From Callorhinchus milii (lineage: Eukaryota), in NCBI RefSeq assembly GCF_018977255.1, contig NW_024704743.1, positions 24,182,001 to 24,246,000 of the forward strand: a DNA stretch of 64,000 nt, in the 5' to 3' direction. The notes beneath the pieces are model-generated. The model was given only the letters and a program-made list of their open reading frames with translations. It was not told the DNA's origin and did no database searches. The translations under genes were made by a program, and so were the position numbers. Numbering within the stretch: position 1 is the stretch's first letter; the number at the start of each line of letters is the position of its first letter. This document shows positions 2,459 to 62,814 of this stretch, piece after piece.

Positions 2459-2555
2459 CACTCTTGATGAATAAATTTGATACTACCAGTGCAGACACAA
2501 GGATGGTAAAGTGGTTTATCCATTGTTCCTTCTGACCGGCAAACCCGGCATATAT
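2459..2555 (-). CDS. MARCHF6: MARCHF6 coding exon 2 (RING-CH start)
   Basis: Acceptor TTTTTTCTTTCCCTCTAG|, donor |GTAGGT; 97 nt encoding (D)[31 protein letters not shown](C). Confidence 0.96.
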
Positions 2556-21578: not shown

Positions 21579-21614
21579 CAGCTTCAGCCGCAGCAGCAGC
21601 AGCAGCAGGTGCTC

Positions 21615-21625
21615 TTTTCATTTTA
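21615..21625 (+). terminator. Pol III oligo-T terminator of tRNA-Thr
   Basis: TTTT runs beginning about 36 nt after the tRNA. Confidence 0.7.
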
Positions 21626-24646: not shown

Positions 24647-25107
24647 TGACCAAACTCCGTACTCCCATCTCACCAGTTCCTGCCAGGCTCCACTGGCACC
24701 CACCCCAACGCCGAACAGATCGACTTCAAGATTCTCACACTCGTGTTCAAATCGCTTCATTCCTTGGCACCTCCCTACCTCTCCAACCTCCTCACTTCCC
24801 AATCCACCACCTGGTACCTCCGCACGACTGGCACCAGCCTCCTTCTTGTCCCTCGCACCCTCCGCTCCACCATCGGAGGTCACGCTTTTAGCCACTACGC
24901 CCCGAAACTTGGGAATACTCTCCCTCAATGCCTGCATCGTGCTCCCGCGCTCCTTTTTCCAGTCCCACCTTAAAGCTTTCCTTTTCGACTGTGCTTACGG
25001 TCACACTCCCCCCACCCCCCAGGCTTGGAATCAGGCTCCGCCATTGTTAAGTGCTCTGAGATGCTGCCTTGCTTGGAGCGTGCTATATAAGTGCAAGTTG
25101 TTGTTGT
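24647..25107 (+). mobile_element. Second L2 3' fragment
   Basis: FKSLHSLAPPYLSNLL...IGGHAFSHYAP, (TTG)n tail. Confidence 0.85.
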
Positions 25108-28913: not shown

Positions 28914-29033
28914 TCACCTGTATGATGATGTGGGCCAGCAATGTGTCAGGTCAAGGCACTTGCGCAGGTTGTTGAGAGCAGCCTGATGGCACTGGCGCTC
29001 CACTTCGAACCTCTGCTTACACAGCTTCAGCTC
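28914..29033 (-). CDS. GSE1: GSE1-like last coding exon ([13 protein letters not shown]...[17 protein letters not shown])
   Basis: TTTGTTTCTCTAG| acceptor, 39 codons + TGA; matches GSE1 C-terminal coiled coil. Confidence 0.92.
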   Translation of the reverse strand, partial: ELKLCKQRFEVERQCHQAALNNLRKCLDLTHCWPTSSYR

Positions 29034-32000: not shown

Positions 32001-35000
32001 CTGGGTCCAGATCCACAGCTCACCACAAAACAAAACCTCAGGTGGTGCGTACAGTACGCTTGAAAATATTTACTGGGAATTGGATAATTGTCTTCTCATC
32101 TCCAAAATGGTATTGTAATCCATGCTTGTCTCTTGGATTCTTATCTTCGTTTATTATAATGTCAATGTTGAGGTTTGTGAAATAAAAAGTTTAATATTTT
32201 TATTTAAAAATCTTGTGCTGTGATACTTTCCCATATGATGTGGCTTATCAGCAGGAATAATTTAAAAATCTTACCATAATAATAATAGTGTTTAATCCCA
32301 CGTTTTATCCCACACTACGCTCCACGAGCCTATGAACCCCATCCTTGCTTGGCTTCATTGGCTCCAAGCCCCCAGTGTATCAAATTTAAGATGCTTGTTC
32401 TCACTTTCAAACCGTCCTTGTCCCGCTCCTCCAATTTGGCTCTGTGACCTCCTTCAATCCTATCAACCCAGCTGCTCCGTTTGCTCAGCGAACATTGACC
32501 TACTTCATGTCCCCGTTCTATCCATCCCACCATTGCACTTTCCTCTCTCCACCCCCTTGGGTTACCACCCCCAGCTGTGGTGCCCAGCCAGCAGTGTTAA
32601 GCACTTTGAGACATGCTCCCGACGTGAAAGGCCCTATAAAAAGTTAAATTGTTTTGCAACAACTTTCTGGAGCCGCAGGGTTACTGTTCATTCTGTATAG
32701 TGAGACATTACTGATACTGATAAGTAGCTTCAGCTTCTTGATTATACAATAACCATTCAATGTAATACTCAACAACCTTTAATAATGAGCAAAGTTTTCC
32801 TATAAACACTAAAACCATCCTAAACATCTTCTGTATAAACATGCAACTAGCAATAAAACTCTTTTCCGTCTCCCAGAATGTAATGTTAAGACAGAGGATC
32901 TACTGTATAGAGTTTCACTTCTGGAACTGACACCATTTTTTAGTAGCATATGTGTGTAGGAAGAAATAAGACCAAAAATTCATGACCGAAATCAGCAACT
33001 ACGGAACAGACTATTTACCGTTTTTTATCCAAATCAAGAAACAGTATTTGACCAGTATAGATATGTGACCTCTGCACCGAATTTATAATAATAATAATCT
33101 TTGAATTTGATATAGCGCTTTTCATGTCTTCTAGTCGTCTCAAAGCGCTTCACAGAATATACTGTAAAGTAAATTCACTGCAAATTTGTGGGCGAAATTC
33201 CCACAAACAGTCATAGATTGAAGTGACCAATTTATTGTTTTTTTTTCTTGAGGGATTATTATTAGGCGTGTGGAGTAAGGAAACTTGCCCAAGGTTTCGC
33301 CCCTGCTGGGAATCGAACCCAGGTCTCTCGCTTGAGAGGCGAGTGCTCTAACCACTGAGCTACAGGACTCCACATTTCTGCCAATAATGCACATGAACTA
33401 GATAGAAAGCCACCTGCGCCTGAAGTGTCAAAATGAATAATAATCTTTACTTTTTTTATCATTGTTTTCATACATTATCTGCAGTCTTCAGTTTCTAATA
33501 GTTTGATGGTGTGCTATTCAATATACAGTGAAAGAACACGATACATTTGATTGGCAGCTGGGGGGAGAAAAGTAGGCAGAAAATCAAAGTGTTCAGAGTT
33601 ACATCCCTTACGAGCATTCTCTTAAAATAAATAGGTCCTTTTGCAGTAAATTATGATAACCTGCCATTCCATGCAATGGCTTAAAACAGCATGAGGGTTT
33701 ACTGTAGTTCATCACAGGTACAGCTGGTCTTTTCACACTTAGATGATTTAGTGTTGAACGTCTGTTACTAGGATTAAGGAAATTAGAAATCATCAGGACA
33801 GCAAAATGCTACACTGCAGCAATACACTTCTGCAAAGGCAGGGGGAATTGCATGTAATAATCACTGGTTCACAGAGGTGTCTCTTTAATCTAGACCTGGG
33901 CGATGGTATATTTCTTACCAACATATGTACACGGAGATTCTCTGCTGTAACGTTCAGTTCCTGATTTCTATTTTTGAGATGACTCAGCTGCTCCTCAAGC
34001 AGTTGCTGCTCGAGGTTTTTCTCTGCAAAATGAAAAATATTAACAAAGTATATATATATACATATACATAGTCCCATTTAATCCTTTCCCTCACCCCATG
34101 AACCCTATATCATCTTTGCTCGCAGAGAGCAGATTGCAGTGGGCAGAATCTGGCAAAATCAATGGTAACGATGATATAGAAGGCACACTTATTTTCTGAC
34201 ACAGCAGAGGGCATCTCTCTCTTGTTCAACTGAGAAATTTGGTGTCTAAAATGCAATACTGCAGTAAGCAAATATCAGATACCAAGCGTCACAGAACAAT
34301 GAATCCCAGATTTTAAGCTGGCAATCTTGTGATCCAAAATTGGCAAATCAGGAACCAAAATTAACACAACACATCCAGTGTGTGAATTTATTGCAATTTA
34401 GAAACTATTGTGTTTTATTTTAACCATACAATAAGTAATACTCCTTGCATTTGAAATAGCATCTTATTACATTGTCCAAATGTCTCAAAGCATTTCACAG
34501 GATGTTTTACTGTAAATTGCAATGATTGGGTATTTGTAGGCAAATGTATTGCAAGCATCTCCCTTCCCCCCCAATCCACTGACATCGGCAGCTATTCATT
34601 TCCCTTTCCACATACACAATTTGCATATGCGAAGGTTTGAGGAGTGATCGAATCCATTCTTATACTTGATGTGAAACTCTGTAGAATAGTTTCCACGCCA
34701 CACACTCTGCCTACTATTTTGTGAAGTATGACTCAATTCTGTGCACATTTCTCCATTGCATTCAAAATGCAATGGAGAAATATGCACAGAATTGGGCCTG
34801 CAAATATACAGTCACTCCACTTTACAGTATATTCTGTGAAGCACTTTGGGACGTATCAAAGATGTGATGAGACTCTATATCCAATGCAAGGATGATTATT
34901 TTTATTAAGTACAGTTCAGTGGTGTCGTTTCATTCACACTTTTTTCTCATTCTTACCTTCAAGGTACTCCTGGTAAGCTTCGAGGACCGCCGTGACCCCC

Positions 35001-38000
35001 TGCCATTTTGGCTGCCAATTCATCTCATCCTCGCTTTCAGATTCTTCAGCCTGAAGAACATCCTGTCTGCTTTGATCTAGATGTTGCAGGACCTCAGTTG
35101 TCTGCTGCTGCTGCCGCCGCTGTTGCTGCTTTGGTACGTCACACAATGACGATCGCGGAGCTATGGAACTGCAACTTCTATCACTCTGTGCTTCACCCAC
35201 TGAAACAATAATGAACAGCTCAATTACCACATCGCTGTATTGTGCAGGAAGATTATCCGATGTAGGTTAAAGCACAAAATAACTTAGTGATCATGCAGCT
35301 ATTCTATCTATGTCCAAGTGTACAAAATGGAAAGCGTTACTTAGAAGGTTCAGAATAGAATATCGTAGACAGAAACAGAGAACATTTCTCACTCTGATCA
35401 GTGTACAAGATCTTTTCAATTTTTAATTGCCTCTTACTTTTCTGATTATTCAAAGTAACATACACCATAGTGTGCCCACACGCAGCATTAGGAGCTTTGG
35501 AATGCAAAACATGGGTCACTCCCAGTGCTTGCTTGATGTTTGCGTGATCAGCAAATGTGTCTTGTTAAGTTCTGGTAGGTGGTAAAATACAGAGGTTCAT
35601 TGCACACTATATAAGCGTAACATCTGTTGAAGACTGTTTCACTCACTCGCCTTCCTAAATGCATAAATAATATGCAAGATAGCACAAGCTAACAATTCAG
35701 TTATTTACCACTGCTGCGAGTCAAGAACCACAAGGTGCAGATAGACTAAGGCTAACTTGAGTGATGACGATTAAGATCGCACTGTGTTTTGTACTGCTGG
35801 CTTGATTGATAAGGTTAAGGCAGTTATTGAGTTCCTCTCTCTTACAGCATGGGTAACTCATTCCTTTCCAGTTAACAAGATCAGTTTGGATGAAGAAGGC
35901 CTCTTTGACCCATTTGATCTCCTCCTTCCAGAAAACCCACCATACTGTCTTTCCATAACAGCATTAAGTTATATTTGGATTAATTCAGTGATGGGCCTCA
36001 ACCACCCTTCCTGGTAGCCTATTTCCAGTCATAAAATCAGAGAATCCTGCAGCACAGAAGGGAGGCCATTCAGCCCATTATGCCTGTGCCAGCTCTTTGA
36101 AAAAGCTATTCAATTAATCCCAATCCCCCGCTCTTTCCCCATAGCCTAGCATTTTTTTTCAAGTATATTTCGAATGCGCTTCAGGCTGCACAACCCAGAT
36201 CGTAACAATTCTCTGCGTAAAAACATTCTCATCTCCCCCTGGTTCTTTTGCCAATTATCTTAAATCTGTGTCCTCTGGTTACTACCAGTGGAAATAGTTT
36301 CTTCTTATTTACTCTATCAAACCCATCATAATTTTGAACTCCTCTATTAAATCTCCCCTCAACCTTCTCTGCTCTAAGGAGAATAATCCCTACTTTTCTA
36401 GTCTCTCCACATAGCTAAAGTCCCTCATCCCTGGTACCATTCTGGTAAATCTCCTTTGCACCCTCTCCAAAGCCTTGATATCCTTCCTAAAGTGTGTTGC
36501 CCAGAATTGGATACAATACTCCAGCTGAGACCTATCCAGTGATTTATAGAAGTTTAGCGTAATTTCCTTGCTTTTGTATTATATACGTCTATTTATAAAG
36601 CCAAGGATTCCATATTTTTTAAAAACAGATTTAACAAGTTGTCCTGCTACCTTCAAAGATCAGTCTTAACCTGGGCCAATAGAAAGGGCTGCAACAATTT
36701 TTCTGCTGAATCCACTGCAAACCACTTCCTCCGCTACAAACCTGTAATAACACAGTGTGCTAGACCCCGGGCCGCTGTGCATTGCTGCCGGCTGTGGGCG
36801 GAGCAGCCCCAGACACTCTTGCGTGGAGAGGCGCGAGCGGGAAATGGGCTTCGCTCACCCCAAGGCACGCTGTTGTCTGTGTGTCTCCCTCTTTTATGTG
36901 TGTGTCTGTTTGTGAGTGTCTTTGTGTGAGTTTGTCTGTGTGTATCTCTCTCCTCTACATGTGTGTGTTTGTGAATGTGTTTGTGTGTCTGTGAGTGTGT
37001 GTCTCGCTATGGCTGTGAGTGCGTCTCTATGTCTGCGAGTGTGTGACTCTCTCTGAGTCTGTCTCTCTCTGCATCTGTCTGTGAGTGTGTGTGTCTCTCT
37101 GTCTAGAAGTGTTTGTGTGTGTCTCTGTGGGAGTGCGTCTGTCTCTCTGTGGTGGCAAGCCCCAAGAGGCAGGAGTTGGTGACCGAACAAGAGTCAGGAC
37201 ACTGGGCTTCTAGTGTAGTGTAGGGTGGAAATGGACCATTTGACCCTTCAGGCCAGGGCTAGTGTTCCCCCCCACCACGAGTGGGCCATCCATTATTTGT
37301 TAAAGAGAGGATTAATACTTTTTGCAACAATCTAATATGTATTATTTCTGCATGTTTAGTCTTTAGCGATAACAGAGTTTTACTCCACGTTCATGTTTAG
37401 GTCTATCACATGTCAATCAATCTTTTAATTACTTCTCATGGAAAATCCCCTGATAGCTCCCATTAATTTGCAGTACTTCTTAGATTATAAAAGGATTCCA
37501 TAGGGTGGAGGTTGATGGACTATTTCCACTCGTTGGTCAGTTCAAAACGAGGGGCATAAATATAAGCTAGTTAGTAGCAGATCTAAGAGCAAGTTTAGGA
37601 GGTACTTCTTTTTGTAGATTTGCCCATACTTACATTCCGTACGTACCCCTGTGTTTCAGCATATTTCAGTTTTGCAGTTTCCAAGCAGAATCCATACCAG
37701 TGATTGTAGATTCAAACATAAAAAAGATGGGCCAGCTGCAGAACTAATGCCCTTTTGCACTGCTGCTAAATAGTATTAGTGTCATAATAAAAGCTGGCAG
37801 TTCTTTTGGCAATGTAAGAACAAAGCATTGAAATTGTATTTGTTAGTAGAAATGAAGGATTTCAAGCTCCCCTTTTGCCTAAAGTGAAAATGACCACTCT
37901 GAAGATAGTCCATCCAGGGAATCCTTCTGCCTCAGACGCCTCCCCCACCACCTTTAAAGCCCGCATTAAGATAATAATGATGACTCTTGCATTTGGTATA

Positions 38001-41000
38001 GCGCCTTTCACATCAGAAGGATGTCCCTAAACCCTTCATAGGATTTTACTGTAAAGTAGAGTGAATGTGATTTGTAGGCGATAGGAAAAAGAGCTATGAA
38101 TACAAAAGCTACGAAGCTTAATTAAATTTATACAAGACATCATTTAGGTTTGCTGTGTGCAAATTGTTAGGTTAGGTTTACAGTTTGCTGTGTGCAAACT
38201 GGCTACTGCATTTGTCTATAAAATACTGTCATTGCACTTTACAATAAATTTACTGGAACCTCCCTCTTCTTACTTTAACCGGCAGCCTCCCACTTTACTC
38301 CCGCCCTCTTCCTCTCTTTCTGTCTTTAAGTCCTGCCTCCAATCCTACCTCTATTAATGCACCTATGGCCACCGTCTCTTCCCTCTCCCCACCTTGCTTG
38401 GCCAAACCCATCCATGTGAAGTATTACCCTATGTGAAGGGCACTATATAAATGTAAATTGTCGTTTGTTGTAAATCCTGTGAAGTACTTTGACATGTCCT
38501 CCCGATGTGAAAGATGCTACGTTAAAAGCAAGGATTATTATTTTATTATTATTACAGCTCTTGGCACCCAATTACAGAGAGTATATCAGTGCCATGAAAG
38601 GAGGAGTAATGAGGAGCTCCAAGGAGAGGAAGTGGAGTTTTAAGTGAATAAAATTGAATTCAAAAAACAAAAATCTAGATATTACATAAAATAATAACAA
38701 TAATAATAATCCTTGCATTTGATATAGCGCTTTATCACATCTTCAAGATGTTTCGAAGGGCTTCACAGAATATGCTGTAAAGTGAATTGACTCTGTATTT
38801 TGTGGATGAAACGTGGCAGCCAATTGCGCACAGCAGTGTCCCACAAACAGTCATGAATCGAGTGACCAAATTATTATTTTTATTGAAAAGAAAGAGATCA
38901 TTTAAAGGTTGGTTTGTTTCCTGTGTTTTTCACTAGAGTGCATTACCTGGGTGATGATGTGAAGCCTGCATCTCAGCGCTCTGCAGCACGGAATCCTGGA
39001 AGTTGCGGGTGAACTGGTGAGGCGGTTTGAGTTTCCTATTCCTGTCAGTTACCATCCCATATGGTTTGCACTTGTCACTGGAGGCGCCGCTGAAATCTGC
39101 TGTTCCCAGCTTGTCAGATTTGTTCTCATTTACGCTGCTTGTGCGATCATTTGACACGGATTCCAGAGCTGGTGGTGTCAGCCGTGGCTCTGCCCGAGGC
39201 TTGGCTGGCAGTTTCTCATGAGGATGAACAGTTTGGCTGCTGTCAGGTGCAAGCACCGAGAGACAGCTGACGTCAGGTGCACCTGTCAGGCCGGAAGCAT
39301 CTGCCAGATGAAAACAGATAGTCTGTTCACTTCTCTGATGCCTACATGAAGTCCTGCTCTCCTTGGTGTAAATATTCTGACAGTAACATTACTCACATTT
39401 TGTGTGGAGAACATTTAAGGTGGAGGCTACTGCGGTTATCTGAATACTTAAGTGAGAAGCAGACCTGGGCATGGCTCAATCTGACCCAAAACTGACATAA
39501 GCAGTGATTGTAGGGTGTCAAATCAGACGTTTTGGCAATATTTCTTGTTGGAATTCAGGAAATGCAACCCCCTGCCCTCCTGAACTACTTTGCCATAAAG
39601 GTAATAATAATAATAATAATAATCCTTGTATTTGATATAGCGCTTTTCACGTCAGGAGGACATCCCAAAGCGCTTCACAGAACACACTGTAAAGTGAATT
39701 GACTGTATATTTGTGGGCGAACGCGGCAGCCAATTGCCCAGGGGACAAATACTATGCCCCCACAACTATTCTTTTACACCAAACCAGACAGGTTTGGCTT
39801 GGCTTTGATTTCCTGCATTTTATCAAACATTTTCCCAAACCTTCAGTGATCAAAAAAATAACATCTGCCTTGCACGGTTGGAGGCCTGTCTGACTGAGGG
39901 AAAGGCTCCAGACTGTAATAATAACTCACTGTGCTCATGAATAATTATGTATAACAGAGCCTCAGCAGCTTGTAGCTGTTTTTTTTTCGTCCGGCTGGTT
40001 ATAGCACCCAACTAAACAAGTCGAAAATTGTCACCCGCAACTCTGATCTTCTTGGACCTGCCTGCCCATTTCTGTATATCCAAGTGGCAGACCCTGGGAA
40101 CAAGGCAAACTGGAAACTCACAAAAGCCCCTTTTCTAATCCTATCTGGGGCTGTGGAGATTTAACTTTGGCACTTGCCCCCAAATATATCCATTTATATT
40201 AAGTGCGAGGATTATTAATTTTATTCACAATTTGGCTGCAGTTGTGAATATCTAACAGTGCGACATCCCATTGTTTACACTCCTCATAATATTCAGAATT
40301 AGAATATTCTCATGACCCAATTCAGGAATACAACTTTACGGGCTGTTTCCTGGTGGTGGGGGTGGGGTTGGAGTGGGGGAAACTGAGATGACTTTTCACA
40401 CCAACATCAATTTAGGAAAGAATGTGAAGGCATTCCTAATTAACACAAGTATCAGCTTAAGAAACACTGTAAAAAAATTGCTCTGTGTGCAATTAGCCGC
40501 CACATTTCACCCACAAAATACAGTCACTCCATCTTACTATGAAGCACTTTGAGATGCCTCAATGATGTGACAAGGCGCTATATCAAATGCAAGGGTTATT
40601 ATTGTTATTATTAATAAATAGTATCCTCATTGAATTTTACAGCAAAGGAGGAAATTCAGTCCATTGGGCTGTGCTGCTTCTCTGAAAGAGCTAAACATAT
40701 TGTCCTATTCTGTCCCATTCCTTACTCTTTACATTTTTCAAATATTTGTCCCAATATTTAAAACCTATTATGGGTTTGGCTTCAATCACCATTTTTGTAG
40801 AGAATTATACTGATTACAAACCCTTTTGTGTGAAAAACTCCTACCATCGTACTTTGTTTTCTTGGCAATGATCTTAAATTTACACCCTTTAGTTACCAAT
40901 TCATGACCACCTGGTTAACACCATACATTAAAGATGTCGGCCTGGCTCAGATGATAGCCTCCAGTTACAAGGTTGTGGGTCAAGACCCATGTAGTCTAGG

Positions 41001-44000
41001 CTGACACTCGAATGGGGGAGTGCTGCATTGTTAGAGATGCTGTCCTTTGGATGAGATGTTAAATTGATGTCCTGTTCAGATGGTCATTAAAGATCTTGTG
41101 GCGCAATTCGAAAAAGAGAAGAGTTTCTCCCGGTATCCTAACCAACAATTCCCTCAAAAAGAAATTGGCCATTCACTTCAAGACATTCCCGTGCGCAAAT
41201 TGGCTGCTGCATTTGTCTAGAAATATACAGTCACTACACTTAACTGTGAAGCGCTTTAAGAGTCTCTATATCAAATGGAAGGATTAGTTTTCTTAAAATA
41301 AGTAGCCTGGAATAACTGGTCTCACTCCAAAGTTCATTTTTTTCTAGCCAGTTTCTGTGGCTGTTGACGTAAACCATAGAAATTTAGAGCACAGGTCACT
41401 CAGCCCATTGTGTTGTCAACAAGTCAACGGTCGACAGGATTTTTGAGTTATCTGGTCAGTGACCTGGGTCAAGCCACAACCAAATGAGGGAATTCAAATT
41501 CGACAAAGTAATAAAAATAATAATAATAAATAAGGAACTAGAAAAAAAATCAGGAAATACATGATCTACAAATTGAATGTGGGCGTATGTGGCAATATAA
41601 AACAAACATAATCAACGGCGCAACTGGAGACTATTCAAAAATGGATTGACAAAATTCCTGGTGGACAAAATATCAACCTCCTGCAAAAAGTAGTTATTTT
41701 AGGAAGCTCAAATATATTAAGAAAAGTAACATCCATTCATCTGTAAAGTGGCAGTGTTATTGGTCCTACTGACCCATCACTCAAAACCATTTAGAAATTA
41801 TCTCTACAAAGTGATTTAAACTGTAATAACATAATATAATAATAAATAATAATCATTGCATTGTTCTTTTCACACTGGGAGAACATCTAAGGTGCTTCCC
41901 AGGATATACTGTAAAGTGTAATGACTGTGTACTTTGTGAGTGAATAGTACAGTAAGTGTTAAATGAGCACTGAGGTGACAATACATCAATGTTATTCATC
42001 TACAAAATACAGTCACTACATTTTACAATATATTCTGTGAAGTGCTTTGAGACGTCTGTGAAGGTTGCAATATCAAATGCAAGGATTAGTATCTTTCAGA
42101 AAAATGTTTAGATACAGGTGTGAGAAATGAAAATGCCACAATGATCCATAGATAATGCACATGGGAACACCTGCACAAGTGCACACATACACACACACGC
42201 ACACACACATACACACACACACATATATAGGATAACAAACATACACCCATGAGCACACCGCCACATTTGGATTGCGACATTGCTGGGGGTCAATTGACTG
42301 GCGCGCTTATCCACAAAACACACAGTCACTTCACTTTATAATAAATCCTGTGAAGTGCTTTGGGACGTCCTCCTGAAGTAATAGACGCTATACAAAAAGG
42401 ATTATTATTATCATGCACCCGCACACCCACACAAGCAAACACGCCCACACACACATGTTGATGATTCTTCCATCATAATATATCATAAAGTATTCTGAGG
42501 AATATCAATGTTTCATAATTCTGTGGAAGGGAGTATTATTAATGAATTAATACTGCAATACCATTATTTTTCCTGAAGGGAAATGTCAATTTAGTTTAGA
42601 AATGTCAAAGTGTGACAACATGTCCTATTGAGACTATTTAATCCTATCAGCACTGAATTATTGAATGCAATTTGACAAATGAGTGGGTTGCTGCCACTGA
42701 CATCATATACTTATTGGTCAGATCCAATAGCTCATCAGTTTTGCCCTCACAATCTCCTCACTTCTCCAAGATTTATGCGATCTCATGTCTGTGCCTTTAC
42801 CATTAAGTCAAGCTATTGACTTGATGAAACATCTGAAAAAATCTCCACCTTATTACATTTTTGTATTTGCTGCACATTAGCTCAATGCAATTTACTGTGA
42901 GTTATAACCTGTCTCGGGAAAACCGGAATGTCATTTTTAAGAGCCATTTTACTCACCTTTTGTCTGCGAAGGAATCAAGTGCTTTAAGTCAAAGAGTGCA
43001 AGAAATTCTTTCTTTTCCTCCAAATCTGCTGCCTTGTTCAGTTCACCTGAAGAATGGCTGAGAGAGAGGACACACAGTGGAGCTGGTCTCTTGTTGTCTG
43101 AATGAAGCAGGGATGGACTGTGTTCCCTCAGCATTCTGCGTCTCTTCCTCAGCTTCTGCTGTTTGACCTCTTCTTTCCTGCTCTGAGTGGTCAGCCCCAC
43201 AGCTCCGAGGAAATGGAGTTTCTGTGAGAAGAGTTTCATCGGAAACACAAATTATTTAAAATTATCTGGAGATTGGAAATTCCTCCAAGCCTTAGCCTGC
43301 AAGACCATTTTGTCTTAAAAGTCCTGTAGCTCAGTGGTTGCCAGGAAGGGTAGTTGAGGCCAGGACACTTAAAAAAAACACCTCGATGCTGATGGGAATT
43401 CACTAGGGTGGGTATTCTGGAACAATGAAATCAAATGATCAAATGGGCGAAAGGATTTTCTTTATCTAAACCAATATTGTGATCTTGTGAAAAGTTTCTG
43501 GATGATCTAAATTTTGGATGATCTGAAATGCTTTGTTAATAGACAAAATCTAGTTCCAAATGGATCCCCCCACCCACAGTGATTTGTACAGATATTAGAA
43601 ACATTATCATGTTCCACAAACTGCTCAACATTAATCAGGCATCATCTGCTTAGTATCACTTCACACCAAAAATAACTTTTTGGGTTTTGTGGCGTGTTTT
43701 GCAGGCTTCAGCCTTCCACCACGTATTATTCTATACTGAAATCAAAAAATGCACCTAATGTAAGACCTTTTTTTGTGAAGAATTGTGGAGAATTGTTAAA
43801 TTCAGTCTTCATTCAGGGTCTAGCTTTCCGTGGGTCTTAAAAAGAACCTGCTTTCAAATCAAGATAAATTTAAGATTTTTTTCAGAATCCCACAGTTTAT
43901 TTCTACTGTTAGTGGAGTTGGTGACTAGAAGACATAGGTATAAGATAGTCACAGGAGGAATGAAAGACAAGCTCAGGAGAATTTTTTTCACAACGAGTGT

Positions 44001-50000: not shown

Positions 50001-53000
50001 GAGTGGCACCGTGACACATTTTAGACTTGCCGGTCCAGATTTCTTGATTACGCTCACATCTTTCTCAGTGCAAGTTTTAGGAAGCTCTGGATTAAAGTGT
50101 TCTCCAGCAGTCTTGTTCAAATTTTCACTTTTCAGTTCAATGTTCTGAACTCTTTCCGGGTCCCTCTGTACCTCGTAGTTATTCCTGGAGCTGTTAGTGC
50201 TGTAGTTAAGTGCTTGAGCTGATGGAACTGCATGAACAGATGGAAAGGGTCTTGGAAGAGGGGAGTGCTCTCTCAGAGGGTGCCGTGGTGAAATGAGAGG
50301 AGGAGGTGCTCTCAAGTGCAAGGGACGCTCTTGCTTTTCATCTTCAGGGGTGACTCTGCAGGAGAAAGACACATTTAATATAAGATAAAGATCAAACGTT
50401 ACTCATGGAGTAATTCCATGGTATGTGTAAATCTATCCTCTGGGAGAAGGGGTGGTGAGCATTGGTTCTCTGGTGACTGAAGAGACTCTGAAGAGACACA
50501 AGTAATTCAAGGCTTCGAGGATGTCTGACCAACCTGCCGGGCTCATCATTGAGACTTAGAGATGTAGTCATGCAGGGATATCACCAGTCACTTGCAAACC
50601 ACCTCCGCGTGCAGAGTGGGTGAACTCTATGATGTGTGAGTGGGAGTGGGGGGGGGGCTACATTCAAGTGACACATGTGTGTTTATTCCTGAGGCTGAGT
50701 ATAGAGTGAACAGCCTGTTACTCAGCTCAGCTGAGCCAATAAATAAGAGTGGGGGGAGGGGGGGGCGAAGGTGAAAACCTGTATGATTTTATACACGTGT
50801 GAAACCGTTTACGCTTTACAGGGAAAATTATTTCCATCGAGTGAGAACCAGCATTTGTCACAAATTAAAGATGGAATTTTCTGTAGATTGAGGATCAATT
50901 GAGCAGAGTTTTAATGAAACTTTTAGCATTTCATTGCAGGACTTTATTCTTCCCAACAAATCTATCATATTATCTGGCATATATCAAAGTCAAAATGATC
51001 TTGGAACTCTGAGCTTGCATATCAGAAAATGAGGTGCTTAAATAACCTTCAGTTTGGGTTATTCTCCAAATACCTCAGGCAACAATCTGAAGACAGCTCT
51101 CTATTTAAACATAATTTGCCTTTATTTACTCTTTAGTTTGGTATATGTGGGGTGAAGATTGTGACCTGTGATATGTTGATATGTAACTGTGTTACTTAAC
51201 ACCTCATTGAAAAATGTGGCCAGTCAATTTACTCATCAATTGGACTGCCCCCCTACCTGCCTCTCCACACACGTACACACACAAGCCGAACAAGGGAAAT
51301 ATGAAATCTGACAAAATAACTGAAATTTGCTTCACATAAGAAAGGCATAATGGTGAAGGTCTCACTACCTCAGGAAGGAAGAAAAATGAGACTGAAGTTT
51401 GGAACGAGAAAATAAATAAATAAAACGACATTAAGTATTGGAAAAGTATGAGAATTCTCACCTCTTTGGGCTATACACTAGTTCAGTTTATAAATCACTA
51501 AATCAGTGGGATTTTTAGTATATCCCCTGGAAAAGATATCTGTAATAGCTGAATTCCTGACGTCTCACTCACCTGCTTCTCTCCTGTTCTTGCTCTGAAG
51601 GTTGATGTCCTCGGATCAGATCAGATTGCTGCTGACGATGCTGCTGACGAAAGTCTACTCCATGCACTGGTCTGTCCTCCCTCTCTTGTTGCAGATGGCC
51701 GTGACGTACAGCACACTTCCCTTCCCGGGGTGAGCAATACGAGGACCCCATTGGTGGCACACCAAGAAGAGAAGATGCAGGAATTGCAACAGGCTCCAAA
51801 GGCAATGTCCGAAGTTTTCCACTTCCCAAGGACGACTCTTTTTGTTCTTTGAAAAATAAATATTGATCAGCAAACCATTTCTATTCCCTTCAAATAAAAT
51901 AATGCATTACAGGATATTCATGGAATCGTACAACGCATATGGAGGCTATTCGACCCATCATGCCTGTGCCAACTCTTTGAAAGAGCCATCCAACTAGTTC
52001 CACTCCCCCGCTTGCTGTGTTATTTTTAGACCAAAGTTGGCAGTTTCTCCTGGTGTGCTGGCCAACAATCACCCAAATAAAATTGATCACTCACTTCATG
52101 GCTGTTTCTGAGATATTGCTGCCGCGTTTTGTTTACAATATTTCCTGTGAAGCACTTTGAAACCTCATACTGGTGTGAAAGGTTCTATCCCAAATGTAAG
52201 GATTACTACTATTTATAATCAGTTATATTGCACACACAGTGATACTGGTAAATTTATTTTAATGCAGGCAAAAAGATGAGAAACAAAGCAAAGAAGAAAA
52301 TGTTTGGCATTATTTATTGCTTTTGGGATGCTACTTCTCTGTGTCTGCGTAATTAAGATAAAAAATAGCCCTTTATATTTAAAAAAATGGTAGATCTATT
52401 ATCTCTCTGTTACAGAAATGGTGCATTTGATATATCAGACAGTTGTTTTCTGTTATAATAATTATAATAATCTTTGCATTTGATATAGCACCTGATCACT
52501 TCGTTGAGGCATCTCAAACCTTCCCAGAATATATTGTAAAGTGAATTCACTGTTTATTTTGTGGGCGAAACGTGGCAGCCAATTGCGCACAGCTGTGTCA
52601 CACTAATAGTCGTGGATTGAGTGACCACATTTTTTTTTGAGGGATTATTACCCCCGGAAAGCAATTCGTCAATCGACTAACAACTAGGTTCCTATTTACT
52701 GCTAGGTAATCAGAGTCATGTGGAGTAAGGAAACTTGCGTAACTTTTTACCCAGCGGGAGTTATGAGCTGGTAAGCCACCTCTAGCATGAATTAACCAAG
52801 CTGCCTGCTCCTATTCCATCTAGGACCTCTATTGTTTCCTCTTTGTCCTTGCTGCTATTTCTGTCATTATTTTCTACCCTTTGATGTGTCCTGTAGGTGT
52901 CAGCCAGGAGATGGCTCAGAAATGAACAAGGCCTGCAATAAGATCCATATCTTATTCCTTCCAGGTATAGAAGGGCTTGTTTAATAAATTATTTATCACA

Positions 53001-56000: not shown

Positions 56001-59000
56001 GTTACTTTCTTTCCCTCGTGTGTAAAAATGGTTGTTTTGATGTGGCTCAAAAATTGGTTAAAAAATCCAAACAAAAAATTTGATCAAGCCTTCAGCTCCT
56101 CTGCCCCTACCCTTTGGAGCTCCATCCCACAGTATTTTTGCCTCGCTCTCCCTTGCCTCCTTCAAGGCCCATCCTCTTCGACCCTCCTCTTCGACCGTGC
56201 CTTCATTCACCCTCCTACCCCTAATCCTCCCTGCCCTCCACCCCTCATGATCCAAACCCCCAACAGGTCCAAATCCCTGACTGTCCAGCACCTTGGGATG
56301 TCCCCTCGACGTGAAAGGCACTATACAATTGTAACTTGTTGTTGTTCTCGCGCACCAGGCTCTGTGACCCCATCACTCCCACCCTCGCCCGACTCCACTG
56401 GCTCCCCATCCCTCAGAGGATCGAATTCAAGATCCTCGTCGTCAACTTTAAGGCCATCCATGGCCTTGCCCCCTCCTACCTCTCTGACCTGCTGACTCCC
56501 TACCAACCTGCCCGCTCCCTCCGTTCAGCGGGCTCCGGCCTGCTCCATGTCTCCCACCCGACCCGCCCTACCATTGGTGGCCGGGCTTTCAGCCTCTCTG
56601 CCCCCACACTCTGGAATTCTGTCCCACAGTCCCTTCACCTCGCTTCCTCCCTTGCCTCCTTCAAGGCAGGTCTCAAGACCCTCCTCTTCGGTCGTGCCTT
56701 CAGTTGCCCTCCCACCTCCCTGCCTTCCCTCACCCCTACCCCACCCCTCCCCCATGCTCGGGTCCTGACCCCTGACTGTCCAGCACCTTTGGATGTCCTC
56801 CCGACGTGAAGGGCGCTCTATAAATGTAATTTTGTTCTTGTTGTTCCCCTTCATAGCTCAAATGTGCACCCAGGGCTACTGACAATATTACTATTTAACT
56901 GAAGGCTACATGTCCTGTGTAATAGGAGAATGAGCTACAGAGTGGGTTAGTTGCCCTCTGGTTATCCTTGCTTCCCCCTTCAAAAAACATGTTATTTAGC
57001 AGTTCATTTGCATTGTGGATTGTACACACAAAACCTGATGACAGCATCCTCAGATTCTGTTGCAGAGCTCTTCTGTGAACCATTGTGCTGCCCACCCACA
57101 CTGCTCTACAGTTACAAACTGTCTTTAAGAAACAGATGAAACTTTATGAAGAATAATGCTCCTGATTTAAATGAAACAAAAATGTGTGGCAGTATTTTCC
57201 TACTGCTGATGATGCAGTGAAAGGTATGATATCTTAAAACAGATGACAAAAAATTGGATTTTTCATATTTTCACACCAGTAATTTACTTAACCAAGGTCA
57301 TGTAACCCAATAAGCTGGTTTTGTAGGAGATAACAGAGTGGGAGAATCAATGGATCCAAATAACACAAACATATGGAATTCACAGTAGCTGGCACAAAAA
57401 GGTCATACAAAAATTGAAGGAACCTTTATCTTCAACATGAAAGCATTTTTACTTATGAAACATACAATGTGAGACCTGCAATTCAGGGTGCAATTTAGAT
57501 AAAAAACACTGAGTGTCAGAGACTGGAAGAGTGAACCTCAAGCAGCTGATTTATTACCATTTTCAGAATCGTAAAAGATGTTACGAGGCTGAAACCCCTG
57601 CTACCCTAGGTGGGTGGTGGGGGTGGGGGAGCGGCATTGTATTATCACAGGCTACATTTTCTCGTACTCCTCCCTGCCCCCCCATAGAATAACAGGAAAA
57701 GCACAGCAAGTAAGTTAAGATCTGAAAGAGAAAGATTGGTTTATGTTTCGGGTATGCTCTTTTACCAGAAATGAAATAGTAAACACCAAATGTTAACCCT
57801 GCTTTCTATTGTAAGTGAAGATCAGCCCCCTGGGTGTGTATTTCCATCGTTATTCTGTCTTCTTCAGCATTCGTAGATTTTGTTTGAAACTTTACTTTCA
57901 AGGGGTGAAACATGCGACGTTTGGTAATTGTCACTGAAATTAATTATCGCAATAATGAAAATTGCAGTCAAACCAGTCAATAACTGTCAATAAAAGGAAC
58001 CTCTCACTTTTACCCATTTTGACACAATGGTTGGGACAGAAGCCACTGGAGTTGATGATGTTATAATCATTCCCCATACCAGTTTAACTGAACCCAAACC
58101 ATGAATGGTTTGACCCTTTTTCTTTTTTAAAAAAAACTGATACAGCTGCTCCCCTCCCGCAAAAGTTAAACAAACAAAAACACATTTCAGAAAAGGCTGC
58201 GATCCGCAATTTAATGCACGATTCACTTAATACTGACCTTCCGCCTGTCAGGATTGATAGATGGTCCGAGTGCAAGGCTGGGAGTGAAGGGTGAGCTGCA
58301 TCTAGGTGCTGCCTCATTCCACTACGGGACAAGTGCATATTGGGAGGCTGCAGATGTGGCAAGGCGCCAGGTTGTGGAATATGAAAGAACGGAGGTCGGA
58401 ATGATAGAACACAGGGGTCATCGATTCTGTGAATAAAAGACTGGGACATCACTCAAACTATTCTCTGAAGGCTAGAAAGATTCACTTGCAAGATTAATTC
58501 TTTTCTTTTATTAGTTTATAAACGTACGTTTTACTAACAAAACATATTTTCAGGACAAGAATTAATTTTAGCTAATTTTTTGTTAATTCTCCCCAATAAG
58601 GAACATTTCACTCTGACTTCAATTTGAACCATTGGAACAATTCGAAATTACACTTGGGGAGATATTTCATTTAGGTCTACTTTACACTTGGGCAGATATT
58701 TCATTTAGTCTATTTTATGCGGCCCTTTGCAGCATTCAGCATTGGACAAATTGTTGAAATCAGTCTTAATGTTGAAGTTGTTTTGCTGTAGCTCTTAAAA
58801 ATTCTCATAGAAACCTGGTTTCAAAATTAAGGCTGAATAAAATTCTAATAGCTCTAAAATGCTCTATAAATAGAGTAAACCTGGAGCCAGGTGGAATTTC
58901 TCTCCAATAATATAAAGGTATTAAGCGCTCTGCGATGTTATCCCTCGTGAAGTGTGCTATATAAATGCGTGTTGTTGTAGTTGCCATAATCCTTGCATTT

Positions 59001-62000
59001 GGTATAGCGCCTTTCACGTCAGAAGAACATCCCAAAGTTTCACAGGTTTTACTGTAAAGTGCAGTGACTGTGTATTTTGTGGGTGAACATGGCAGCTAAT
59101 TGTATACAGCAATGTCCTACAAACAGCCATAAAGTGAGTGATCAATTTTATTTGGGGAGACTGTTGGCCAGGACACCATGGAAAAGAAACTACCTTCTCT
59201 TTTCGAATAGTGCCATGGAATATTTAACGTCCACCTACAGGCAAACAGGCCTCCGTTTAAAATCTTATCCAAAGGACAGCATCTGTAACAATGGAGTACA
59301 CCCCCAGTCCACCCCCTATTGGAGTGTCATCTTAGACTATGTGATTCCAAGTCCTAACATAGGGCTGAAACCCACAACCTTCTGGCTCGAGAGTGCTACA
59401 ACTTGAGCCAGGCTGACACATATGTAAAATACTGCAATGCTGTTTTTAAGACGATTAAGATGGGTAGCTGAACTTATTTACTGGCTCTTCCACTTTAGGC
59501 ACAATGGGATGGTGCTGACAACAAGTAAACGGGTTTCGCTTACACTGTCTGGGTACTTACCTATATGTTGGATGATGAAAAGGAAGATGGGATAAGAAGG
59601 CAGGATGATAGTAAGCTGCAGATGCAGCGGCTGCTGATGAGTCCAACCCAAGGGAAGCCAGCGAGGACAAAGCTTGGATTTCATTGCGACTATGATATGG
59701 ACGGAAACTTGAGAGGAAGTCTTCTGCCCTGCTGTTGGAAGATACCAAGTGTGGGACTGGTCGCTGCAAACTGCAAAGTTACAGGCACTTGTGAAATGTG
59801 CTTTCCTGAATTGAGACTTCAAGACACATTCACTATACTCAAGGCACATAAGCACAGAAATGCACACTATTCAAAACCCTGCATTTCACACAATCTTATT
59901 GGATTAAAAACTTTCTCTGTTGGAAGATTTATTTGTGTTCAATATCTGTGATCCATATAGTCTTATGCTTCACAGGCCATCACCCACTTCTCCTTTCCCC
60001 ATATCGAAAGACCGTTTAACAATGTAGTTTTCTGGTTCATGTGTTCCGACCACAGAGGGTCTGTCTGGCTGACATTTGCATCAACTAGATGGCTCGCTAA
60101 CAGGCTGGAGAAGTTACTTGCAGAGGGCGGTGACAAAACAATAATAATAATCTTTGCATTTAATATAGTGCCTTATCACATCGTTGAGACATCTGAAAGT
60201 GCTTCATGGAATATACTGTAAAGATAATTGACTATATATTTTGTGGGCGAAACACAGCAGCCAATTGCACACAGCAGTGTCCCACAAACAGTCGTGGACT
60301 GAGTGACCAAATTATTATTATTTTATTTGTTTTTGAAGGGATTATTACACCCAGAAAGCGATCTGCCAATCAACTAACAACTGGATTCCTACTTACTGGT
60401 AGGTAAACATAGGCATGTGGAGTAAGATAACTTGCCTAAGGTTTCCCCCTGTCTGGGAATTGAACCCAGGTTCTCTCATTTGCGAGATGAGTGCTCTAAC
60501 CAGTACATTACAGGACTTTACAGGACAAAACAAATAGATTGCTTTTCCTTTAAAGTAGGAATAGGTATGCTTTTTTTGGAGGATGGCAATGTGAATTTGC
60601 ATTGTATTTATTTTATGTTTTGCCTAAATAAGTGGACAATAACATTGGTATCATGAAGGAAATAATTAAGACTGATCTTCATTTAACAGTCGTATTGATA
60701 GCAGATGATGATTATATTGATTAGCAGTTCCTGTGAGGTGCAATAAGTGCAGTCCTTGAGGCATATTTATAATCATTGCTGCTCTTGCACCACTGTTTAA
60801 CCTTTAGATTGTCAGGCAAATCTGCAAGACTCCTCTCGAGAAGGGCTAACTGATTTTTGTGTGCAAAAAAATCTTTCTTTATGCCTCTCCATCCTCTCTA
60901 GAAGATGCTTTGGCTGTTTCATTCCTTCCCACAGTGGTACAATTCAAAAGTCTCCAGGTACCCTCCAGCACCTTGTTCAAGTGATAATTTTTCTGGTTAA
61001 CGGCGTGTCTGACACATGTAGAAAGCCATTGTCATATTTAAGTGGTCGGTTTTGTTTGGTTGTTTGGTACTCTTAAGCATGGAGATGAGATGACCATATA
61101 TGTCAGATATCCCCGAAAAGCTTCATTATTCACATGATAAAACAAACAACAACCACAAATTACATTGTATAGCACCTTTCAGGTTCGGAGGACGTCCCAA
61201 AGGTGCTGGATAGTCATGGATTTGGACCCGATCTGGGGGTTGGGATCAGGAGGGGTGGAGGGTAGGGAGGATGGGTTAGGAGGATGACAGAAGGTGTGGG
61301 CGAAGATGAAGGTCTTGAGAGGGGCCTTTCAGGAGGCAAGAAGGGGACAAGGCAAATAAACTGTGGGATGGAGTTCTAAAGGGTGGGGGCAGAAGGGCAA
61401 AATGAAACAGCTCAAACTTGAAAAAAATACACAGTAAACCCCCGGCTTACTGGACTCCGGATTTCCAGAATTCAAACCTACCTAGCCTGACTGGGCCTGA
61501 AACGGAAATTTAAAAAAAAATATGTGGCCAGTGTGTGAGTAGACTCCCGCTAGCTCAACTTTCCTAGCATGCACCCCTGCCTCACCATGCTCGTTGGCCT
61601 TCAGTGGCCAGGGATATCAACTTTGACTCCATTTGAATCTCGCTTATTTGCTATCTTCTGCTTGCGGGATTCAGACAAATTACACATTTCCCTTCATTGA
61701 ATAACATCCCACCACTGATCAGCCCATTGCACTAACCTGTTTCAATCCTCTTGCAGTCTCTTGCCATTCTCATCACTATTCACAATTCTTGCTAGCTTGA
61801 TGTCATCTGCAAACTTTTATACCGTACCCCCTATATCCAAGTCGAGGTCCCTGTGGTATGCTACTAACCTTGGGACGCATGGCTTCTGGAGCGAATTAAA
61901 TGGGTTTCCTACTCTAACAAATGGCTGATTTCCAGCAAGGTGCATCACCACTGATGTCAGTTTCTGCAATTGTACACTAATACAGTTCACACAGGAATCT

Positions 62001-62814
62001 CACTGATGTCACTTGCATACTGAGCATTTGTTCTGTATATTTTGTTTGTGCTTTGTTTGTCACAAAACCCCAGAGACCCCCGGTGACCAGATTATAATGA
62101 GGTTGCCCTGTATGTGGACTCAGTGTCAGTTGGCAAGTCTAGCCTTCTGCTCTACATGAAAACTCAGTTTGGTACAATTGCTGATCCAAGTCAAACAGTC
62201 CAGGGCAGTGGCCAGTGTCACCGTCTGCTTCATTTTCTGTCCTCCAACACAGACACAAACATGAAGGAATTAAAGCAAGAGAAGGTTGGGACTGTCTGGT
62301 CATGGGAAGTGAGCAATGAAAATTGGAATAATACAGGATACACTGTGTATGAGGGAAGGATTTAATATTCATGTGTGAATATGTGTGTGTACATATGGTG
62401 TACATATGGATGTCTTGACTGGCACAGAATTTTATAAATATTTTAAACAGAACTCACATACACCACACAATATTACAGTCAACCTGATTGAAATGTTCAT
62501 GTGGGTGAAGTAAGGGAAAATCTAAAGTTTAAAATGTCTTATCCATTGATATCTAGGATGCTCTGAAGCTATGGGAGAGCAACCTAAAAATAATGTAGCA
62601 AAACATGACCATTATGATGAATGCTAAAATTAAGATAAGCAAATACTTACTTGATGGCTGAATATGGTAAATCTTGGGCAGAATTACTGGAGAGATAAAA
62701 AGCAGGATGTGAGGGTGCAGGGTGGGTGGGTACTGCAAGTTTGTCCTTTTTTAACAAAGACTCTGTGGACAGTGGGTGTTCACGACTGCTGGATCTCAGG
62801 GCACTGTCTGAGAG
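28914..62814 (-). CDS. GSE1: GSE1-like (genetic suppressor element 1 family) coiled-coil protein, 12 exons, 5'-partial
   Basis: join(62814..62651,59770..59561,58426..58238,55973..55612,51846..51573,50355..49700,46915..46803,43221..42957,39300..38947,35199..34957,34022..33919,29033..28914) = 3054 nt open frame. Collinear GSE1 motifs: [85 protein letters not shown]. Family is confident; ortholog versus paralog is not resolved. Confidence 0.92.
32320..32655 (+). mobile_element. Degraded L2 3' fragment
   Basis: PILAWLHWL remnant and shared tail. Confidence 0.7.
33085..33372 (-). mobile_element. Full-length tRNA-derived SINE
   Basis: Reverse-complement homolog of 11016-11348. Confidence 0.9.
33919..34022 (-). 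CDS. GSE1: GSE1-like exon (EKNLEQQLL...[10 protein letters not shown])
   Basis: CATTTTGCAG| acceptor, |GTAAGA donor, phase 1->0. Confidence 0.92.
34957..35199 (-). CDS. GSE1: GSE1-like exon (...ESESEDE...[16 protein letters not shown])
   Basis: ATTGTTTCAG| acceptor, |GTAAGA donor, phase 1->1. Confidence 0.92.
36030..36660 (-). mobile_element. CR1-type LINE 3' fragment
   Basis: GGAGGCCATTCAGCCC..CCTGTGCCAGCTC tail and CAATACTCCAGCTGAG typical of CR1 3' regions. Confidence 0.75.
36875..37150. repeat. Degenerate (GT/CT)n simple repeat
   Basis: Direct inspection. Confidence 0.8.
38947..39300 (-). CDS. GSE1: GSE1-like exon (...[12 protein letters not shown]...)
   Basis: TTTTCATCTGGCAG| acceptor, |GTAATG donor, phase 1->1. 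Confidence 0.82.
40935..41287 (+). mobile_element. Ancient DeuSINE-like (SacSINE1/AmnSINE-type) element
   Basis: GCTGACACT..GGGAGTGCTGCATTG..GATGAGATGTTAAA core recalled from the Deu domain. Confidence 0.72.
41533..41850 (+). mobile_element. R4/Dong-like (restriction-like endonuclease) non-LTR retrotransposon 3' fragment
   Basis: Frameshifted [12 protein letters not shown]...GATG...[24 protein letters not shown], stop ~41746. Confidence 0.7.
42957..43221 (-). CDS. GSE1: GSE1-like exon ([13 protein letters not shown]...[13 protein letters not shown]...EEKKEFL)
   Basis: CTTCTCACAG| acceptor, |GTGAGT donor, phase 0->1. Confidence 0.93.
43890..44200 (+). mobile_element. CR1-type LINE 3' fragment
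   Basis: VTRRHRYKI...[17 protein letters not shown]. Confidence 0.8.
44330..44570 (-). mobile_element. SINE lacking the first ~30 nt of its head
   Basis: Ends at CTTGCGAGGC; a matching head start is at 43320-43339 in the opposite orientation. Confidence 0.85.
44728..45868 (+). mobile_element. L2 LINE RT C-terminal half and 3' tail
   Basis: [34 protein letters not shown]; (TTG)n tail. Confidence 0.93.
46803..46915 (-). CDS. GSE1: GSE1-like exon (...[14 protein letters not shown])
   Basis: CATTTCCCAG| acceptor, |GTAGGC donor, phase 1->0. Confidence 0.87.
47030..47575 (-). mobile_element. Older L2 3' fragment
   Basis: [19 protein letters not shown] remnants. Confidence 0.75.
48130..49016. 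repeat. Unclassified interspersed repeat, rearranged; homolog at ~17370-17525 plus 18100-18480
   Basis: Multiple shared blocks, e.g. CTTAAGAGTATC.AAACCAA.CTGAGAATT and GGGATGCATCCTG.TTACCTAATTC. Confidence 0.8.
49700..50355 (-). CDS. GSE1: GSE1-like exon (APPPLISP...[16 protein letters not shown])
   Basis: CTTTCTCCTGCAG| acceptor, |GTAAGA donor, 656 nt, phase 2->1. Confidence 0.92.
51573..51846 (-). CDS. GSE1: GSE1-like exon (...[18 protein letters not shown]...)
   Basis: TTTTTCAAAG| acceptor, |GTGAGT donor, phase 1->2. Confidence 0.85.
53919..54085 (-). mobile_element. L2 3' tail fragment
   Basis: Closely similar to 3177-3340. Confidence 0.85.
55612..55973 (-). CDS. GSE1: GSE1-like exon, E/R/K-rich coiled coil
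   Basis: TCTACAG| acceptor, |GTATTG donor; [20 protein letters not shown]... parallels the GSE1 RE-repeat; phase 2->1. Confidence 0.85.
56085..56845 (+). mobile_element. Two tandem L2 3' fragments (junction ~56345)
   Basis: Two TTG tails; [21 protein letters not shown]. Confidence 0.88.
58238..58426 (-). CDS. GSE1: GSE1-like exon ([14 protein letters not shown]...[13 protein letters not shown])
   Basis: TTTTATTCACAG| acceptor, |GTCAGT donor, phase 2->2. Confidence 0.9.
58985..59420 (-). mobile_element. DeuSINE-like element
   Basis: Reverse-complement homolog of 40935-41287. Confidence 0.72.
59561..59770 (-). CDS. GSE1: GSE1-like exon (LQRPVPH...[11 protein letters not shown]...HPTYR)
   Basis: CTTTGCAG| acceptor, |GTAAGT donor, phase 2->2, strong motif match. 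Confidence 0.92.
60138..60518 (-). mobile_element. SINE, long-body variant
   Basis: Same head and tail plus ~70 nt extra body, also seen at 22801-23085 and 52455-52760. Confidence 0.85.
61140..61400 (-). mobile_element. L2 3' fragment
   Basis: Same tail motif (GGAGGACGTCCCAA) and 3' UTR. Confidence 0.75.
62651..62814 (-). CDS. GSE1: GSE1-like exon ([13 protein letters not shown]...AQDLPYSAI(N))
   Basis: TTCTCTCACCAG| acceptor, |GTAAGT donor, phase 0->2; not in the ORF track. Confidence 0.8.

Follow-up and report, generated by a model that had tools for sequence, protein, structure and literature searches.

A GSE1-like gene in the elephant shark genome

The window considered here is a stretch of 64,000 nt from the elephant shark, Callorhinchus milii (contig NW_024704743.1). 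Its minus strand encodes a divergent member of the GSE1 family, rebuilt from 62814 down to 28914, and a MARCHF6-type gene lies downstream on the same strand (Table 1). The rebuilt gene has 12 exons of compatible phase, with AG at all 12 acceptors and GT at all 11 donors. Frame 0 runs for 1017 residues to a single terminal stop; the other two frames contain 47 and 59 stops. Identity to the ortholog of the sevengill shark is 68% over the whole protein and 62–80% for every exon, which places the gene model far beyond chance, whereas shark and monkey canonical GSE1 proteins share 30–32% of residues with the part encoded in the window. An earlier, sequence-only reading of this DNA had described 12 phase-consistent, stop-free exons with the GSE1 motifs in order; the rebuilt gene agrees on both points, the order being FAAALRKLA, RPY, the Glu/Arg helix, PPPLISP, SKLDL, DUF3736 and the WQG coiled coil.

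That reading also called the gene intact. This holds for the reading frame; the model is partial, in that it has no start codon, and an exon of 39 codons found in shark and ray orthologs is absent (see below). The RefSeq protein XP_007887979.2 has 165 additional N-terminal residues that match nothing anywhere in the window. The FAAALRKLA motif, which occurs in 18 of the 20 proteins of the paralog group described below, lies in this RefSeq protein of the C. milii gene and is likewise encoded outside the window. Exon 10 (35199–34957) has two further features: an insertion, rich in Gln and about 10 residues long, that is specific to C. milii, and a missense difference at 35164 that two sequencing runs share with the older RefSeq model.

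Evidence for transcription came from assembled sequencing runs. Exon 6 is present, whole or partly, in 11 of the 13 runs listed, none of which is recorded as RNA, and the contigs of four runs were aligned to 28000–47500, the region of exons 7 to 12. Repeats swamped the tables of depth and joints, and read depth was not used. One contig in each of two runs, both from the same study, joins exons 10, 11 and 12 at their predicted edges, which demonstrates splicing. The boundaries of exons 7, 8, 9 and 12 also coincide with the ends of further contig pieces, and in another run one contig has a piece that starts at the acceptor of exon 9, preceded by 166 letters from elsewhere than the adjoining intron. 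The sequence-only reading had made its case depend on spliced transcripts, and these were seen for the joins 10–11 and 11–12.

Table 1. Exons of the GSE1-like gene, a candidate motif and the neighbouring gene, in window coordinates
Feature	Position	Strand	Basis or remark
Exon 1 in the window (not the first of the gene)	62651..62814	-	Rebuilt exon; about 165 N-terminal residues beyond the window
Exon 2, GSE1 segment rich in Pro and His, with RPY and YYHP	59561..59770	-	Identity 80% with the shark ortholog and 51% with GSE1 of a primate
Exon 3	58238..58426	-	Rebuilt exon, identity to shark ortholog
Exon 4, long Glu/Arg/Lys-rich helix	55612..55973	-	AlphaFold2 helix, residues 354–430 of protein P0012
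Exon 5	51573..51846	-	Rebuilt exon, identity to shark ortholog
Exon 6, PPPLISP motif, LDLS motif, start of DUF3736	49700..50355	-	Rebuilt exon, domain scan
CLDLS and second xDLS, disordered segment, candidate for docking CtBP	49854..49901 (CLDLS 49901–49887; xDLS 49871–49854)	-	Conservation; pLDDT <50
Exon 7, middle of DUF3736, site at which other residues stand in place of the ancestral acidic patch	46803..46915	-	RNA contig pieces end at exon edges
Exon 8, DUF3736 core, KxxFLxxxGLT, basic RKRRR, EEKKxFL helices	42957..43221	-	PF12540, E 2.8e-21, 76.5 bits alone
Intron 8	39301..42956	-	Without the 39-codon shark/ray exon; RefSeq gene split falls here
Exon 9, diverged FHESVL-type helix	38947..39300	-	RNA contig piece starts exactly at acceptor
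Exon 10, start of C-terminal coiled coil (WQG)	34957..35199	-	Rebuilt exon, spliced RNA contigs
Exon 11, coiled coil	33919..34022	-	Rebuilt exon, spliced RNA contigs
Exon 12, coding part and stop codon	28914..29033	-	RNA contigs extend to about 28350
MARCHF6-type gene, first coding exon	15254..15272	-	13.6 kb downstream of the GSE1-like gene, same strand
MARCHF6-type gene, exon 2 (start of RINGv)	about 2459..2555	-	Best PDB match yeast DOA10, E 1.6e-10

An ancient paralog of GSE1

Relatives of the gene were collected by a search with a shark ortholog, for which the best 120 of 126 matches were listed, and by comparing a profile with 1.84 billion representative sequences, for which 150 of 1616 matches were listed and then classified with BLAST and a rapid tree. 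At least 15 clusters of GSE1-like proteins from cartilaginous fishes stand at 65–100% identity, followed by a sharp fall to canonical GSE1. Outside sharks and rays, GSE1-like members were added from paddlefish, bowfin, reedfish, lungfish and two sturgeons, together with single homologs from invertebrates. Among the matches listed, six shark and ray species have both genes, and in all six the sequences that host them differ in length (172 and 67 Mb in Heptranchias), which is indirect evidence that the two copies lie on different chromosomes. Proteins labelled GSE1-like in teleosts were also considered as orthologs and were rejected, since they nest inside canonical GSE1.

The final tree was built from 32 chosen proteins after removal of long N-terminal extensions, using 680 conserved columns of 1848 and a mixture model, and was rooted. 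The GSE1-like proteins of shark, ray, sturgeon, paddlefish, bowfin, reedfish and lungfish (7 from cartilaginous and 5 from bony fishes) form one clade with support of 100/99; 12 canonical GSE1 proteins form another with support of 100/100, and 8 invertebrate proteins fall outside both. A FastTree run had left three vertebrate groups unresolved, which the trimmed mixture-model tree resolved. In approximately unbiased (AU) tests, a duplication confined to cartilaginous fishes was rejected (p 1e-36), and so was the possibility that the bony-fish copies arose independently of the cartilaginous ones (p 0.0007). The bony-fish paralogs have long branches, yet they share with the shark copies a first-exon motif and the LDLS motif discussed below; the first-exon motif, YLQMKL, matches 10 of 20 paralog proteins and none of 113 canonical ones. 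The elephant shark gene falls outside the canonical clade, as the proposal of a second GSE1 paralog had predicted, and six species hold both genes. It belongs to the GSE1 family without being an ortholog of canonical GSE1, and is an intact, spliced second GSE1 gene and not a pseudogene. By the tree and the AU tests, the duplication took place after the divergence of amphioxus and before the split of sharks from bony fishes.

The sequence-only reading had further supposed that the gene was not retained in mammals. No paralog from tetrapods or teleosts is among the matches listed, in searches of limited reach, one of which also missed its own reedfish and lungfish inputs; the supposition is thus upheld as far as these searches go, and the evidence for an apparent loss from both groups is moderate. 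No coelacanth, gar or cyclostome (lamprey, hagfish) sequences were identified among the matches listed.

Conserved and lost elements of the protein

The domain DUF3736 (PF12540) scores 118 bits, against a cut-off of 22.6, in the protein of the C. milii gene (P0012), and passes the cut-off in 5 of the 6 scanned paralog records that span it. In the AlphaFold2 model of the first 914 residues, most of the chain is disordered and 663 residues fall below a pLDDT of 50; the structured parts are a long Glu/Arg helix and short helices in DUF3736. The C-terminus is modelled as one helix of 81 residues, mostly above a pLDDT of 90. When the paralogs are aligned with canonical and invertebrate GSE1, this helix shows no gaps and its heptads stay in register; the gap-free coiled coil comprises 78 residues. 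The retention of this coiled coil and of the basic RKRRR motif, which lies in exon 8, had been noted from the sequence and is borne out. A complex prediction for two copies of the coiled coil, run without an alignment, gave a score of 0.02 and is not evidence either way.

Searches for structural relatives returned little: a Foldseek search with the C-terminal model gave 0 matches at E 0.001, and a PDB sequence search with a shark ortholog gave a single chance match (E 0.089). The KxxFLxxxGLT helix and adjoining basic stretch of exon 8 (43221–43129) may resemble a segment of the CoREST subunits PHF21A/B; an ESM Atlas search with the DUF3736 region returned no usable match and lends this likeness no support.

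One element of DUF3736 sets the two genes apart. A patch rich in Tyr, Asp and Glu was found by the same pattern in 83 of 113 canonical proteins (fragments included) and in none of 20 paralogs, and the 12-residue stretch that the earlier reading had contrasted with acidic residues in GSE1 does align opposite this patch. The mean number of Asp and Glu residues in the patch is 2.9 in 18 paralog proteins, 8.9 in 107 canonical proteins and 8.0 in 8 invertebrate proteins. The acidic patch is ancestral and was lost in the paralog. Canonical GSE1 also has a long N-terminal form, of which 46 paralog records give no indication, the longest of them not exceeding 1247 residues. In the long canonical and amphioxus isoforms (residues 1–780 of P0078 and 1–690 of P0175), this N-terminus carries repeated Cys-rich units of the form CxxC...YFPFL...CxxC, which look zinc-binding, match no Pfam family and occur in no paralog record.

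The converse holds for a short motif encoded in exon 6. All 20 paralog proteins contain LDLS, and it is the sole 4-mer that they all have in common; of 113 canonical proteins 1 contains it, at a different place. A second xDLS follows close behind it in all 14 cartilaginous paralogs and in none of the 6 from bony fishes. ALDLS occurs in the N-terminal extension of 7 of 25 scanned invertebrate proteins. A shuffle control for shared 4-mers (1/300) ignores common descent and was not relied on.

A possible re-wired corepressor scaffold or a decaying copy

Human GSE1 is reported to co-purify with subunits of the CoREST complex (PMC7613766, PMC10681733), to bind CoREST, LSD1, HDAC1/2 and HMG20A/B, and to be required for USP22 to join (PMC10681733). 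By analogy, the paralog would be a mostly disordered nuclear adaptor whose retained DUF3736 helices, basic stretch and coiled coil admit it to LSD1/CoREST/HDAC-type complexes, as in GSE1; that the helices and coiled coil serve this entry is somewhat favoured. The LDLS motif would add a direct link to CtBP that vertebrate GSE1 lacks. RAI2 is described as binding CtBP with the LDL core of its ALDLS motif, which makes the only specific contacts (PMC11187106), and other non-canonical motifs are described as occupying the same cleft of CtBP (bioRxiv 10.1101/2025.06.30.662346). We predict, with slightly better than even confidence, that the LDLS of the paralog docks into the PxDLS cleft of CtBP. Polymerisation of the kind seen with RAI2 is unlikely for the paralog because its second motif is imperfect and very close to the first. 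With the acidic patch lost, the paralog may thus represent a re-wired alternative corepressor scaffold and not a redundant copy. As a whole, an expressed, ancient GSE1 paralog that acts as such a scaffold is the best explanation of the data, and a reasonably probable one. A further and more tentative suggestion is that an ancestral job was divided, such that the acidic patch stayed with canonical GSE1, which lost the CtBP-type motif, and the motif stayed with the paralog, which lost the patch; invertebrate GSE1 carries the acidic patch and, in its long forms, ALDLS. On this tentative reading the paralog would be a dedicated bridge from CtBP to CoREST, coupling the NAD(H)-sensitive CtBP to LSD1/HDAC, and one that was dropped or replaced in tetrapods and teleosts.

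Several observations weigh against the scaffold model. LDLS is expected by chance about 0.06 times in a protein of the size of the paralog, both CLDLS and the second xDLS miss the strict P-x-D-L-S consensus, and the 20 paralog proteins amount to roughly six independent lineages. Given this chance rate and the non-consensus form of the motif, the case for LDLS rests on its conservation in those approximately six lineages. The region of GSE1 that binds CoREST is not mapped in the accessible parts of the GSE1 papers searched. A join of exons 8 and 9 is not among the joints listed, which repeats dominate. In bowfin DUF3736 could not be detected, and no more than 3 of 20 paralog proteins match the FHESVL pattern; both results fit decay as well as they fit re-wiring. 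Finally, the paralog evolves faster than canonical GSE1, about twofold in cartilaginous fishes and four- to sixfold in bony fishes; root-to-tip distances are 0.32–0.48 for canonical proteins (0.68 for perch), 0.64–0.89 for cartilaginous paralogs and 1.4–2.0 for bony paralogs.

In an alternative, the gene is a real, ancient paralog but a redundant copy that does a subset of the job of GSE1 under relaxed selection and is heading for loss, with LDLS having another role or none. The rate, two- to sixfold that of canonical GSE1, speaks for decay, and the loss of the acidic patch, the lack of any sign of the long N-terminal form and the absence of tetrapod and teleost members among the matches listed are consistent with it. 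Decay is harder to reconcile with retention in at least 20 species since sharks and bony fishes separated, with a coiled coil that is free of gaps in every member, with an LDLS motif that outlasts every family-wide motif, and with a conserved first exon that belongs to the paralog itself. We consider decay rather unlikely, and the re-wired scaffold is preferred.

GSE1 itself is a little-studied, cancer-linked scaffold of CoREST, with functional regions unmapped in what could be consulted of the papers searched. A paralog that separated before the split of sharks and bony fishes is in this respect a natural experiment: the shared DUF3736 helices, basic stretch and 78-residue coiled coil mark the likely core contact surfaces, and the parts that differ, the acidic patch and LDLS, provide two precise, testable hypotheses. 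It is common for cartilaginous and non-teleost fishes to retain ancient paralogs, and the gene alone is unsurprising; the testable novelty, of specialist interest, is the exchange of an acidic patch for a CtBP-type motif.

Origin of the duplication

Because its date fits the vertebrate genome duplications, the paralog probably arose by early whole-genome duplication and would thus be an ohnolog. In humans, GSE1 lies at 16q24 and MARCHF6 at 5p15, the partner region of 16q, and it is the MARCHF6-type gene that neighbours the paralog in C. milii. The alternative is a small-scale duplication in the stem of jawed vertebrates followed by translocation, which would leave the proposed function as it stands. 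The tree provides only a time window, within which such an event could also fall. In addition, the human IRX clusters cited as anchors for the pairing of these regions are located at 5p15.33 and 16q12.2 (PMC2211742), some distance from GSE1. Nevertheless, the match in date, the different chromosome-scale sequences that carry the two copies in six species and the identity of the neighbouring gene together make a small-scale origin improbable, and origin by whole-genome duplication is preferred.

The split annotation of the gene

In RefSeq, the C. milii gene is divided between exons 8 and 9 into two models, both automatically named "genetic suppressor element 1-like". The first, XP_007887979, matches the rebuilt protein at 744 of 749 residues from model residue 166, and the second, XP_007887980, at 272 of 272 residues from model residue 27. 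Within intron 8, the first model ends in a terminal exon near 41361 and the second begins with a start exon at 39471–39397. In 29 of 30 matched shark and ray records, a 39-codon exon of phase 1/1 lies between exons 8 and 9, and it has a counterpart in canonical GSE1. A profile of this exon run over the whole window scored 5 bits at best, against 47 bits for exon 11 as a control; in a separate search of intron 8, the score (33) lay in the range of shuffles (29–41). Since orthologs carry this exon after exon 8 and it could not be found in the window, its absence explains the point at which RefSeq splits the gene; it has been lost from the species or is absent from the assembly, and either explains the split.

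It could instead be proposed that the elephant shark gene is truly two transcription units separated at intron 8, such that DUF3736 and the coiled coil are produced as separate proteins. Models from both RefSeq annotation versions consulted end after exon 8, as does a record derived from Ensembl, a separate model of 298 residues spans exons 9–12, the 39-codon exon is absent from the window, and no joint of exons 8 and 9 was found among those listed (593 more are unlisted). Set against this, exons 8 and 9 are phase-compatible and are joined directly in one model from a ray, Mobula; in the RNA contig piece that starts exactly at the exon 9 acceptor, the 166 letters before it do not adjoin exon 9 in the window; the ends of the split models are ad hoc and occur in no ortholog; and the shark and ray orthologs are single proteins in 13 of 13 cases. 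Two separate units are therefore very unlikely, and a single gene is the preferred model. Weakest of all is the idea that this is the only, fast-evolved GSE1 ortholog of C. milii, or a pseudogene: a canonical C. milii GSE1 is absent from the named matches of the protein searches, but the gene nests with shark GSE1-like proteins from species of which six also have canonical GSE1, and its open frame, splice signals and spliced RNA are not those of a pseudogene. The tree already refutes this idea.

The label GSE1-like is already attached to the gene in at least 19 other species in RefSeq. No paper on a second GSE1 gene was found in the literature searched; subscription journals, bioRxiv supplements and ohnolog tables may list the pair. 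GSE1 is not named in the main text and one supplement of a 2026 ohnolog database paper, as distinct from its data tables. The sequence-only reading did not cover the absent exon, the missing N-terminus, the paralog-specific LDLS or these existing labels. The annotation can now be corrected in two respects: the elephant shark gene is split in RefSeq, and the name GSE1-like has also been applied to unrelated teleost duplicates.

Genomic neighbourhood

The gene had been described as lying beside MARCHF6. Its position next to MARCHF6-type exons stands; the name of the neighbour rests on the DOA10 match and on the N-terminus, and the gene is presumably MARCHF6. Human CMBL is located upstream of MARCHF6, and crude patterns gave no convincing CMBL-type motif in the window, including 16000–28900 upstream of the MARCHF6-type gene. 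Between the stop codon of the GSE1-like gene and the start of the MARCHF6-type gene, a CpG-rich island contains a tRNA-Thr(AGT) gene (21505–21579, plus strand, 71 bits). Four further tRNA-like stretches (11021–11085, 18018–18089, 33298–33369 and 60445–60516) are probably the heads of a tRNA-derived short interspersed element, and the one near 33300 has very high depth in the aligned runs.

Directly after the donor of the first MARCHF6-type exon lies a GC-rich minisatellite (14285–15244) with 32 copies of a 31-base unit at 93% matches, which yields long spurious open reading frames. More tandem arrays are present upstream of the MARCHF6-type gene at 15988–17114 and 20131–21266, with a 10-base unit repeated 112 times and units of 54 to 128 bases. 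Decayed reverse-transcriptase fragments of long interspersed elements were found at 3144–4100, 44879–45823 and 56315–56806.

Comparison with known systems

The closest known system is vertebrate GSE1 (KIAA0182; PF12540, DUF3736), which the paralog resembles in the order of its motifs and in being mostly disordered, at the 30–32% identity given above. It differs in forming a separate clade, in lacking the acidic patch, in having LDLS and its own first exon, and in evolving faster. The C. milii RefSeq models XP_007887979 and XP_007887980 represent the same locus and differ from the rebuilt gene by the split at intron 8; their GSE1-like name is automatic and does not mark the gene as a distinct, ancient paralog. 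Teleost gse1a and gse1b likewise provide a second GSE1 gene per genome, and many carry the same automatic name. Unlike the paralog, these genes nest in canonical GSE1, and the four that were aligned keep the acidic patch and lack LDLS; the sequences thus indicate that they derive from a younger, unrelated duplication.

There are parallels with RAI2 and other xLDLS ligands of CtBP (PMC11187106), which, like the paralog, present an LDL core in a disordered region, although no homology is claimed. The first residue of the motif is C or S in the paralog, rather than A or P. Moreover, the second motif of the cartilaginous paralogs lacks the first L and lies about 4 residues away, as compared with 21 residues in RAI2.

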